DNA of 64,000 nt, taken from NCBI GenBank assembly GCA_949293175.1, contig CASFCI010000002.1:27765-91764 (forward strand), in the 5' to 3' direction. This document shows, in pieces, positions 12 to 12,553 of the stretch. A model generated the notes under the pieces. That model was given only the letters and a program-made list of their open reading frames with translations, made no database searches and was not told the DNA's origin. Source of the stretch: an uncultured bacterium (lineage in GTDB: Bacteria; Bacillota_I; Bacilli_A; RFN20; CAG-826). The first letter of the stretch is position 1. Every line of letters begins with the position of its first letter. Made by a program: the position numbers and the translations under genes.

Positions 12-1676
12 TTATCCCTTAGTTGGGCTTTGCGCGGAAACCGGCGCGCCCTCGACGCCCTTGAAGCTCCTAGAGCGCTTCTGCAGCCTCAATATCGCCA
101 AGCCGGCGGCAAGGCAAAGCAAGCCGGTGCAGGCAAGCCAGATCGCGATGCCGCCAATCCAAAGCGGCCAGCTGGGGAAGAAGAAGTAAAAGGCTTCGCG
201 AAGCGCGGCCCCAAAGGCGGAGAAATAGCAAATGGGCACGAATATGGATAGCGATATAGGCAAAGCGGGAAGGGCAATGATGGCGATGGTCCCCACCGCC
301 TTCTTCGCGCCGAGCTCCGTGGCTTTCTTTCCCTGCGAATAGGCGATGATGAAGGAGAGGATCACCCCCAGTAGGAGCGTGACGCCGCCAACTATCCCAA
401 GCAATTGGAGAATCGACCGGCTTGTCGCTAGGGATTCGCCTGGCTCATCGGCGATGTCGAACCTTCGCGCGACCGCCCTGGCTGAGGCGGGCGAGTCGGG
501 GAAGCAGGCGACCGAGAGGCTATTAAGGGCCATCTGGCCTTCGAAGGCGGATTGTCTCCCTTCCATCACCCCACCGCAATCGCAAGGGGTGAACCCCGCC
601 ACCTTCATGCCCCTAAGCGTCATATCGTTAGGCAGCGCCCCTTGGTCGATGGCTTGCTGGAGCAAGGAAACGGAAAGCTTCTCCGCCGCCCTAGCGATGG
701 TGAAGGGCTCGACGTCGATCTCGCGGCTAGGCGAAGTGGAGTTGGCGATCCCAAAATAGAGCTCGGCTTGCTCTATGTCCGGCTCTAGCCCGAGCGAGGA
801 AGCGGCCTCCTCAATGGCGAGGCGCCTAATCCCCTCGACCAGCCCGCTGCGGGGCAATTTGAGGCTCCCCGCTTCCCCGAAATCGACCGAAACCTCCGTC
901 TGGTCTGCTTCTAGGGAGTGTTCAAGCTCAAGGAAATTGCTCACGTAATCGCCTTGCCGGTCTAAGTAGGAAATGAGGTTTGAGGTTGGCAGCACAAGGC
1001 CGACATCGTCCAATCCGAATTCATGGCAGTCGGATGAGTAGCGGTTGGCGGATGACCTCTTATACCCTCCATCGCCTAAGATGACGCAAAGCCTCTCCAG
1101 CGAATTGCCATCTTCGTACGAATTGAGGTACTTCGGTATGTCAATTGAGGTTAGCCAGCTCGGCATCCCGGTGGAGAAGACGCCGCTTACGGTAAGGAAG
1201 TATGGGGTGTGCAAAGGCTCGTAGAGGGGTATGGTCGCCCCGACGATGCCCTCGAGGTCACTTGCCCCGAAAAGCTCGAGGTCCATGACCCAATCGCCGC
1301 TAAGTATCAGCCGATAGGCTAGGGCATCGGGTATCGCGACCTCATTTTCCTTGCTAGGCGCGCTGCCATAGAGGTAATCGATGTCCAAAGAAGCGGCGAA
1401 TTGCGCGGAAAGCCCATAGCGGATAGTGGAAGGCATGCAGCCGCCGAGGTTGTAGCCGACCGAGCAATCGGGTTCGTCGTTGCTGTATTCGATGAGCCCA
1501 TCGGCCTGATCGCTAGAGACATAGAGGGCGTTATAGCCAGAGGGCTTGAAGCAATCGAGGCCGACCCCTTCATACGACGTCGCCCCAGCGGCGAGGGAAG
1601 CGGAAAGGCAGCCCGAGGCGATGGCATCAAGGGCGATCAGGCCAATTCCTAGATAAACTATCTTCCATATCTTCAT
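12..1676 (-). CDS. Lipobox-anchored membrane protein. It has a large extracytoplasmic domain and a C-terminal bundle of 3-4 TM helices, possibly an FtsX-like permease fold. It is a paralog of 10937..12553.
   Basis: The N-terminus MKIWKIVYLGIGLIALDAIASGC is a signal peptide plus lipobox. A roughly 430-aa hydrophilic region is followed by hydrophobic C-terminal helices. The motif LSVSLLQQAIDQGALPNDM matches FVSFLQQAIGQGALPEGMS in the 538-aa paralog. The gene lies 11 nt downstream of, and co-oriented with, the 1688..4468 gene. Confidence 0.55.
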   Translation of the reverse strand: MKIWKIVYLGIGLIALDAIASGCLSASLAAGATSYEGVGLDCFKPSGYNALYVSSDQADGLIEYSNDEPDCSVGYNLGGCMPSTIRYGLSAQFAASLDIDYLYGSAPSKENEVAIPDALAYRLILSGDWVMDLELFGASDLEGIVGATIPLYEPLHTPYFLTVSGVFSTGMPSWLTSIDIPKYLNSYEDGNSLERLCVILGDGGYKRSSANRYSSDCHEFGLDDVGLVLPTSNLISYLDRQGDYVSNFLELEHSLEADQTEVSVDFGEAGSLKLPRSGLVEGIRRLAIEEAASSLGLEPDIEQAELYFGIANSTSPSREIDVEPFTIARAAEKLSVSLLQQAIDQGALPNDMTLRGMKVAGFTPCDCGGVMEGRQSAFEGQMALNSLSVACFPDSPASARAVARRFDIADEPGESLATSRSILQLLGIVGGVTLLLGVILSFIIAYSQGKKATELGAKKAVGTIAIIALPALPISLSIFVPICYFSAFGAALREAFYFFFPSWPLWIGGIAIWLACTGLLCLAAGLAILRLQKRSRSFKGVEGAPVSAQSPTKG

Positions 1677-1687
1677 ACGTTAACTCC

Positions 1688-10915: not shown

Positions 10916-10936
10916 TGCTTATATAGAGGAAAAGCC

Positions 10937-12553
10937 ATGAAAATAGCCAAACCAAGTAAAACAGCGGTCAAGAACATCGTCGCCACCTCGCTCATGCTTG
11001 CCATCCTCGCCCCGCTCATATCGTCTTCGATATCCATCGCGGGGTTCGATGAGGAGAGGGCGCAGATCGAAGCGCTATTTAGGCCCGGCGACTCCTTTTC
11101 CTTCGATGGAGGCAAGCAGGGATTCGTCGACAGCATCGATGAGGAAGGCGACCGCCTCGCCTACATAGCCTACCCATACCGCTACCTGACCAATCGCTAC
11201 GCCTTGCCCTCCCTCGCCTCCGATTCGCTTGGGATCTCCTTTTCCTACGGGCGAGCGCCGCAGGATGATTTCGAGGTCGCCCTGCCCAAGCCGATGGCGG
11301 ACCGCATCTTTGACAAAGGGTATTATGGGCTGGGCGATCTGCCCGACCTCGAGTCGCTGATAGGATGCAATATGCCGTTGCAGGTACCGCTTCTAGAGGG
11401 GATCGACCTGACCATCTCCGGCATATTCGTTGCCCCTGAGCAGCCAGATGGGGATCATGCGAATGGCAGCTTGGACAACACGCTTTTGCTGGGGGAGCGG
11501 GCCTATGTGATATCGAAAGCCGCAAAGAACCGGATCCACTCCTTCTACTCCCAATACGTCGCGAGCATCGGCGAGGAGGATGAAGGCTGGCTTTACGCGC
11601 CCTATGGCGAGGGGCCGCTCATCGTCGGGGCCAGGGCGGCCGAGCGCGCTTGCCTTTTCGGCGACTACACCCCGGTCAGCGTGGAAATATCCTCCGCCAG
11701 CGGGTCGAAGACCATATCCTGCCAAAGGGATTCATTGATATCCGAGCTTGAGGACGCGGCCATCGCCGAGGCCCTTGGCGAGGGGTATTCGCCAGCGCGC
11801 CGCGAGGACATCGAGGCCCTATACGGTGGCATCAACGTCGCGGATTACTACGATTTGGCCGATATGGAGGTGGCCAGGGCCGCCGAGCGGCAATTCGTGT
11901 CCTTCCTGCAGCAGGCCATCGGCCAAGGCGCCCTCCCGGAGGGGATGAGCTACGAAGGGGTGCCGATCGGGGGCATCGCCCCGGAGTACGCCTTTGGGGT
12001 CTTCGAGGGACGGATCGATGAGGTGAATGGCCTCTCCCCCTCCATGATCACTCCGCTTCGTCTGGAGGGCTTCCCCACGCAGAAGCGCGCCGCGCTGAGA
12101 ATGCTTTCGATTTCCCGAAATAGCGGCCTCTACCTGGCCTCGCCCTACCCAAGCCTAGCGGATAAGGGCCGGAGCCAATTCATAATACTGGCCTTGGCGG
12201 TCCCCTTGGCGGTGGCCATCCTGGCCTTGAAGATCTTCTATTCGCGGAAGAAGGCTGGCGAAGGCGAGGGCATGGAGGCAAGTGATGCCGCATTGGAAGG
12301 CGTTTCCGCCGCCGCAGCGGCCTTGCCCTCGTTCCTGCTTTTCTTCCTGCTCGCGCGGTTTAGCCCATATGGGATCTCCGCCGCGGCGTCCGGATTGGCT
12401 TTCCCGAGCCTTCCCTTCTTCGGGATCCACCTTGGCGTATTCCTCACCGGGGTCGCCATTTGCCTATTCGCCGATCTGCTCTTCGGCTTGCTCAGGAGGC
12501 GAAGGCGGAAGAGGTTCAGCGAGGTCACCTGTCCGCCGACCAGCGGCCAGTGA
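10937..12553 (+). CDS. Membrane protein with a large extracytoplasmic domain and C-terminal TM helices, possibly FtsX-like. It is a paralog of 12..1676.
   Basis: It has an N-terminal signal/anchor, a conserved SFLQQAIGQGALPEGMS block and a C-terminal hydrophobic bundle followed by RRRRRKR. Confidence 0.55.
   Translation: MKIAKPSKTAVKNIVATSLMLAILAPLISSSISIAGFDEERAQIEALFRPGDSFSFDGGKQGFVDSIDEEGDRLAYIAYPYRYLTNRYALPSLASDSLGISFSYGRAPQDDFEVALPKPMADRIFDKGYYGLGDLPDLESLIGCNMPLQVPLLEGIDLTISGIFVAPEQPDGDHANGSLDNTLLLGERAYVISKAAKNRIHSFYSQYVASIGEEDEGWLYAPYGEGPLIVGARAAERACLFGDYTPVSVEISSASGSKTISCQRDSLISELEDAAIAEALGEGYSPARREDIEALYGGINVADYYDLADMEVARAAERQFVSFLQQAIGQGALPEGMSYEGVPIGGIAPEYAFGVFEGRIDEVNGLSPSMITPLRLEGFPTQKRAALRMLSISRNSGLYLASPYPSLADKGRSQFIILALAVPLAVAILALKIFYSRKKAGEGEGMEASDAALEGVSAAAAALPSFLLFFLLARFSPYGISAAASGLAFPSLPFFGIHLGVFLTGVAICLFADLLFGLLRRRRRKRFSEVTCPPTSGQ

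Follow-up and report, generated by a model that had tools for sequence, protein, structure and literature searches.

Two paralogous pairs of genes for a secreted and a membrane protein in the uncultured chicken-gut bacterium Candidatus Alloenteromonas pullicola

The 64-kb stretch of contig CASFCI010000002.1 analysed here (the window) contains the genes, called A and B, for two paralogous membrane proteins, each of which evidently belongs to a two-gene module headed by a gene for a large secreted protein, G upstream of A and G' upstream of B. In the strain represented by the window G is intact, and G' has been reduced by deletion to a 31-codon remnant. Tentatively, A and B may be protective membrane partners of the secreted proteins. 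The related contigs and strains compared, designated L001-L027, are all metagenome assemblies and represent a few lineages of one species. Coordinates of the main features are given in Table 1.

Two paralogous modules at one locus

The initial annotation paired each paralog with a different upstream partner, A with a giant secreted protein and B with a hydrophobic peptide of 31 amino acids (aa). The open reading frame (ORF) listing confirmed A and B where they had been placed, and A indeed starts 11 nt behind the low-GC gene G for a secreted protein of 926 aa, the Shine-Dalgarno (SD) sequence of A, GGAG at 1687..1684, being located inside the spacer. Likewise, B is preceded in the window by a 31-aa ORF with a strong SD sequence (GAGGAGGG) and a promoter matching the sigma-70 consensus at 11 of 12 positions, and it has its own SD sequence, GAGGA, at 10926..10930. 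However, the difference between the two partners holds for this strain only, as in other strains an intact G-family gene precedes B. In L023 this gene codes for a secreted G' protein of 909 aa and is separated from B by 10 nt, while L004 has an in-frame deletion form of 516 aa and L003 contains the 3' end of G'. G and G' are collinear, with 38% identity over 871 aa. The parts of G' are a signal peptide, a Pro-rich linker, a semi-hydrophobic segment (residues 425-443) and a C-terminal domain; in G the conserved semi-hydrophobic segment comprises residues 421-440, and the C-terminal domain is predicted to be all-beta. Neither protein has a C-terminal sorting signal or a transmembrane helix (TM) of its own, no internal repeats were found in G, and no homology was found between G and A or B.

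Comparison of the window with L004 by blastn shows that 1444 nt (L004 4290..5733) are missing exactly between positions 10903 and 10904, i.e., within the 31-codon ORF, which is made up of codons 1-28 of G', coding for the signal peptide, joined out of frame to the last ~20 nt of G'. The ORF is a deletion scar of G' that has retained the promoter and the SD sequence of the lost gene. It has a G + C content at third codon positions (GC3) of 0.31, each of the three changes that distinguish it from L001 is nonsynonymous, and it looks like a relic rather than a selected peptide. As the stub is a remnant of G', both paralogs have the same kind of partner, and the locus, as read from these alignments, consists of two paralogous two-gene modules, G-A and G'-B. 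They reside at opposite ends of the conserved rlmN-stp-prkC-rpe operon, and the left flanks of the two module sites are unrelated. Read-through of the single TGA stop codon separating the 31-aa ORF from B, which lies in the same frame, was considered and rejected, since L003 and L004 have G' at this position in another frame.

In L002 and L023, which lack G, 87 nt stand in place of window positions 1677..4494. Both contain at this site (L002 2079..2190) a hydrophobic ORF of 37 codons (MNAKLSFFFWIWLLSLTAAAS...) that reads in frame into the ATG of A; just upstream of G in the window only its first codons are kept (MKIKLFFFGKWKGI, followed by a stop).

Paralogy, topology and distribution of A and B

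The paralogy of A and B proposed in the initial annotation is borne out by pairwise BLASTP alignment (31% identity over 468 aa, E=5e-27) and by alignment of the profiles of their respective orthologs (99.3% probability, hhalign). Also the block quoted as common to the two proteins, LLQQAIDQGALP and FLQQAIGQGALP, is real and represents their best-conserved stretch, with 50-63% identity in 30-aa windows. Further paralogs were not found in the window by tblastn. The length of A is 553-554 aa in every strain with full coverage of the gene.

The two proteins have the predicted architecture in common, as Kyte-Doolittle hydropathy analysis yielded one N-terminal and three C-terminal hydrophobic helices with a domain of ~385 aa between them. 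The helices comprise residues 5-31, 420-449, 459-492 and 503-532 in A and residues 13-38, 411-437, 451-476 and 491-520 in B. The ectodomain extends from about residue 31 to 419 in A and from about residue 38 to 410 in B, the three C-terminal TMs occupy residues 420-532 and 411-520, respectively, and the cytoplasmic tail is basic in A and reads RRRRRKR in B. A topology with the N-terminus inside and the large domain outside fits the charges of both proteins, the N-terminus, the stretch behind TM2 and the C-terminal tail all containing basic residues. The lipobox ascribed to both proteins could be upheld for A only, and there as a lipobox-like sequence (...DAIASG-C23, with AAGC in one ortholog) with an Asp within the h-region; in B the sequence up to about residue 144 is free of Cys, and there is a possible signal-peptidase site, SIA/G, at which it might be cleaved. 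A lipobox as expected of lipoproteins, [LVI][ASTVI][GAS]-C behind an uncharged h-region, is thus not conserved in the family. Genuine lipoboxes are present in several other ORFs of the window.

The sole genome match is a chicken-gut metagenome-assembled genome of Candidatus Alloenteromonas pullicola (Bacillota incertae sedis). A word-based search of 5.8 billion clustered proteins returned orthologs with 93-95% identity as the only relatives of A and B, an exhaustive HMMER search with a profile of both paralogs found, among 1.84 billion representatives, nothing beyond the family itself, and scans of genomes, metagenomes and viral contigs yielded the same species only, with no match among plasmids (tblastn). 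The clusters of A, B, G and G' have 36, 19, 9 and 3 members, respectively. Neither whole proteins nor fragments matched Pfam, NCBIfam, PADLOC or PHROGs. As far as these searches reach, the A/B family is a sequence orphan with no detectable relatives outside Ca. A. pullicola. G is as isolated as A and B: no known domain was found in G or G' (Pfam, PDB, PHROGs, PADLOC), nor any relatives in viral, metagenome and phage collections beyond the same species. An origin of the modules from a phage or a defence island was rejected, as no match supported it.

Strain distribution, decay and selection

A or B lies behind every G-type gene whose downstream sequence is covered (in the window, L004-L008, L014-L019, L021 and L023, and by sequence also in L003). 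A is found without G in L002 and L023, and B with the G' stub ahead of it occurs in L001, L006-L008 and L013 as well as in the window. In the few independent lineages sampled, a G-type gene with covered downstream sequence thus never occurs without the partner, and the partner is kept as an orphan, as would be expected of toxin/immunity loci. The entire G'-B cassette (10580..12618) is absent from L005/L014, L017 and L024.

The G-type genes have been destroyed repeatedly, by insertion, by deletions and by absence. Behind codon 410 (window position 3240) G gives way to foreign DNA, and the contigs break there, in at least 11 cases, L024-L027 among them, probably as a result of a repeated, insertion sequence (IS)-like insertion splitting G; one further G variant has a 3' frameshift. 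At the codon-410 break unrelated sequence of higher G + C content fills ~70 nt up to the contig end, and a separate ORF of 508 aa (P0035) begins at G residue 419. In L020 (2824..5378; ENA ERZ16268061 scaffold_8150) codon 32 of G (window position 4374) runs in frame into an N-terminally truncated dUTPase gene, which is followed by an ORF of 70 aa and a gene for a large serine recombinase of 612 aa, all with a G + C content of 0.34-0.40; either G has been joined to a mobile element here, or the contig is an assembly chimera.

Across positions 1564..4578, i.e., G and ~110 nt on each side, the window differs from L005, L006, L008, L017, L018 and L019 by 0-1 single-nucleotide polymorphisms, with flanks that diverge by 2-6% in the same strains. 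The ends of the identical tract vary, and A itself is 2% diverged in L017. This suggests a recent recombinational spread, or gene-specific sweep, of G among the closest strains. A G allele that is ~2% diverged and carries the insertion occurs in other samples.

With respect to selection, the ratio omega of nonsynonymous to synonymous changes is 0.13-0.26 for A, and it is 0.24 between the G-less L002 and L023 at a synonymous divergence (dS) of 0.135. For B it amounts to 0.41-0.63, at a dS about three times below that of the flanks, and is about 0.45 both with and without G'; for G' it is about 1.05. In L016 (1..396) B is annotated with 386 aa and is possibly truncated ahead of the C-terminal helices.

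The modules are also heterogeneous in base composition. The GC3 is 0.376 in G and 0.371 in G', 0.72 in A and 0.77 in B, and 0.82-0.87 in core genes, A and B thus being about 0.1 below the latter. In both operons GC3 jumps from 0.37 to 0.72-0.77 within 10-11 nt (1677..1688 for G-A, and the G'-B junction of L004 and L023 for the other). Why this compositional boundary has been kept in both copies of the module is accounted for by none of the explanations considered below.

Possible roles: protective partner or surface anchor

As both pairs are paralogous, G and A, and likewise G' and B, are likely to be functional partners. Among the forms which this partnership might take we tentatively prefer, with well less than even confidence, that A and B are cognate, protective and immunity-like membrane partners of a secreted antagonistic effector, G or G', by analogy with known effector/immunity loci and building on the paralogy of both pairs, their tight adjacency, the topology, the presence and absence among strains and the asymmetric decay. 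A and B would then be the membrane partners in two paralogous and presumably co-transcribed operons of Ca. A. pullicola, each coding for a low-GC protein of ~910-926 aa secreted via Sec and, 10-11 nt further on, for a polytopic membrane protein. The ~385-aa ectodomain would face the same extracytoplasmic space as the G-type protein, physically bind its cognate protein on the outer side of the membrane and in this way protect the producer, and the role of the three C-terminal helices would be that of an anchor and not of an ATP-driven permease. The strain of the window would have lost G' by deletion, with the promoter, the SD sequence and 28 signal-peptide codons still ahead of B.

Since G has a Sec-type signal peptide it requires no dedicated exporter, and A and B would accordingly not be needed for its export. 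A protective partner is favoured by the observations that the effector decays while the partner persists, that A is under purifying selection without G, and that G appears to have spread recently. Loss of the effector with retention of the partner is the pattern of orphan immunity genes at bacteriocin, contact-dependent inhibition and type VI secretion system loci.

Several points weigh against a protective role. Pfam, PDB, PHROGs and PADLOC revealed in neither G nor G' a domain of the kind known from toxins, enzymes or adhesins, and the AlphaFold models, with a predicted local distance difference test (pLDDT) score of 38.8 (B) and 35.0 (G'), are too poor for structural inference. Immunity proteins are usually far smaller than 540 aa. 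The difference in GC3 between G (0.37) and A and B (0.72-0.77) argues against long-term co-inheritance as a unit, the normal situation for specific toxin-immunity pairs. B has an omega of ~0.5, was lost in three strain backgrounds and has 386 aa in one, a pattern that fits an anchor decaying after the loss of its cargo equally well. Finally, the sample is small, with the restriction to few lineages and to metagenome assemblies stated above.

Nearly as good an explanation, although we consider it somewhat less probable and no more than a one-in-several prospect, is that A and B are surface anchors or docking platforms whose ectodomain holds G-type proteins as strain-variable adhesins or antigens, with no protective role. 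It draws on the same adjacency and double paralogy, and low-GC, strain-variable and often inactivated genes typify surface antigens under pressure from the host or from phages. Moreover, G and G' have neither a sorting signal nor a TM by which they could be held, and B decays where G' is gone, as seen from its loss in L005/L014, L017 and L024, its shortened form in L016 and its omega of ~0.5. However, an anchor without cargo should decay, and A is under purifying selection in strains without G (omega of 0.24, L002 versus L023), while the omega of B is the same with and without G'.

Relationship to FtsX/MacB-type permeases

The initial annotation had considered A and B as possible FtsX/MacB-type permeases lacking a local ATPase partner. 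Divergent permeases of this type (type VII ATP-binding cassette, ABC), with the ATPase encoded elsewhere and moving or activating the G-type protein like FtsEX with PcsB or CwlO, or like MacB, are in our view unlikely. What speaks for them is the layout, which in both proteins consists of TM1, a large extracytoplasmic domain, TM2-TM4 and a basic C-terminal tail inside, as in FtsX, MacB and LolC permeases including FtsEX with PcsB, CwlO and EnvC, and the adjacent gene for a secreted partner, which the ectodomain of A or B could handle as in FtsEX-type systems. In addition, residues ~100-165 of B (YGRAPQDDFEVALPKPMADRIF...LIGCNMPL...TISGIF) resemble, as a visual impression and not as a test result, the pattern 'Gr.p...evvl...lA..l...G..i.l......vvGi' of MacB-type periplasmic domains.

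The absence of an ABC ATPase from the 64 kb, as claimed initially, was corroborated by Pfam scans of all large ORFs and by motif checks. The only two Walker A matches in the window belong to the F-ATPase beta subunit and to PriA, and neither of the two LSGG-type matches, both in other frames, has a Walker A motif in its vicinity. Also the 8 kb beyond the left end of the window, i.e., beyond A, as seen in L005 and L006 (rpmB, glgC/D/A, leuS), do not code for an ABC ATPase.

Membership in the FtsX/MacB family could not be substantiated. Neither the whole proteins nor fragments match the hidden Markov models PF02687 and PF12704 at E<=10, including C-terminal fragments against PF02687 and ectodomain fragments against PF12704, and the whole proteins match no Pfam family at E<=1; NCBIfam and, by profile, PDB gave no match, and no member of the FtsX family was found by the exhaustive profile search among 1.84 billion proteins. 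In a comparison by hhalign the A/B family aligned with Escherichia coli LolC, LolE, MacB and FtsX at a probability of 0.5%, in contrast to 94.9% (E=4e-8) for the positive control, FtsX against LolC, LolE and MacB, so that A and B differ from these permeases at a sensitivity that links FtsX to the other three. A Foldseek search of PDB with the low-confidence model of B (pLDDT 38.8) gave nothing at E<=0.001, only noise. Furthermore, the cytoplasmic loop between TM2 and TM3, where the coupling helix of MacB sits, is only ~12-20 aa long and poorly conserved, and TM2-4 and the C-terminal tail are the parts of B that vary most between strains (15.6 versus 6.4 changes per 100 aa). The N-terminal helix, finally, is possibly a signal, of the lipoprotein or the secretory type, that is cleaved off, and cleavage at the lipobox-like sequence of A and at the possible SIA/G site of B would remove 'TM1'. 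The best fit to the data is the alternative already named in the initial annotation, a different family altogether. An orphan permease which handles its secreted partner in the manner of FtsX-PcsB is possible as an analogy without support from homology.

Very unlikely, lastly, is that no functional link exists and that A and B are resident membrane proteins with an upstream region that is a tolerated landing site for foreign low-GC genes: the sharp GC3 step at the gene boundary, the selection on A in L002 and L023, which lack G, and further foreign DNA in these places (in L008 an IS separating B from the GH81 gene, in L020 the dUTPase and serine-recombinase genes at the 5' end of G) would agree with it, but two homologous G-type genes (38% identity) located 10-11 nt upstream of the homologous A and B, with unrelated left flanks, are very improbable by chance.

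Comparison with known systems

If A and B are protective partners, the closest parallels would be bacteriocin and polymorphic-toxin loci with membrane immunity proteins. In these as in G-A and G'-B the effector gene comes first and is followed by a tightly coupled gene for a membrane protein, the modules vary between strains and do not extend beyond one species, inactivation of the effector recurs with the partner retained, and, for G, an effector allele has apparently spread recently. Unlike in such loci, the partner is unusually large (540-554 aa, with an ectodomain of 385 aa), there is no recognisable toxin domain, and effector and partner differ greatly in base composition. The genes for Bacteroidales secreted antimicrobial proteins (BSAPs) adjoin a gene for a resistant variant of the surface molecule that these proteins target. 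They are similar to the present modules in that the gene for a secreted protein lies beside one whose product is located at the surface or in the membrane and exposes a large domain, and in that the presence of the secreted-protein gene at the locus varies by strain. In contrast, the phylum and the protein families differ, and the orthologs of A with and without G differ by ~5% in protein sequence with no resistant and sensitive allele classes evident.

It is rather doubtful, though conceivable, that G-A and G'-B represent a previously undescribed Sec-dependent effector/partner module, in which a secreted protein of ~100 kDa would be recognised and either neutralised or deployed by a dedicated four-helix membrane protein of FtsX-like layout without an ATPase, and in which an effector gene of foreign-like composition would turn over by sweeps, IS hits and deletions while the partner persists. 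The partnership, if true, would join a sequence-orphan secreted protein and a polytopic membrane partner from a poorly known lineage of uncultured gut Bacillota, and the population data are unusually clear in that effector genes sweep and decay while the partner stays. Two lessons may be drawn: what reads as a hydrophobic peptide of 31 aa behind a perfect promoter and SD sequence can be the remnant of a decapitated large gene, and an FtsX-like topology is by itself no evidence for an ABC permease. Confinement of the family to one species limits its practical importance.

Features and other genes of the window

Table 1. Positions of the G-A and G'-B modules and associated signals in the window.
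Feature	Position	Strand	Evidence or remark
Gene A, 554-aa membrane protein	12..1676	-	ORF list, translation, hydropathy, paralogy to B
G-A spacer, 11 nt, carrying the SD sequence of A	1677..1687	-	Location of the GC3 step
Gene G, 926-aa protein with Sec signal peptide (ATG at 4468)	1688..4468	-	G + C content 40%, GC3 0.376
Strain-variable B cassette (promoter, stub, B, terminator)	10580..12618	+	86 nt in its place in L005 (blastn, junctions); L017 and L024 likewise
Promoter-like site TTGACA-17-AATAAT, 11/12 match to sigma-70	10730..10758	+	Promoter region of G' in other strains; collinear with L004
31-codon ORF (G' stub)	10820..10915	+	SD sequence GAGGAGGG at 10805..10812; junction 10903/10904
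Gene B, 538-aa paralog of A	10937..12553	+	ORF list, translation, BLASTP, hydropathy
Terminator-like hairpin between the convergent B and GH81 genes	12576..12607	+	Fold -21.8 kcal/mol, z=-2.46

Convergent with B lies a gene on the minus strand (12620..15742) for a protein of 1040 aa with a GH81 (endo-beta-1,3-glucanase) domain and bacterial Ig-like domains; in L008 (412..1787) a pair of rve-family transposase genes is located between it and B. The PrkC/PknB-like kinase of the rlmN-stp-prkC-rpe operon (5965..6999, minus strand; 291 aa as called in related contigs) consists of the kinase domain only, with no PASTA or other extracellular domain found in Pfam. Six nearby or consecutive ORFs of 419-545 aa at 41881..49350 and 15933..17450 code for proteins with signal peptides and no Pfam match; five of the six have canonical lipoboxes, forming a cluster of orphan lipoproteins or secreted proteins.

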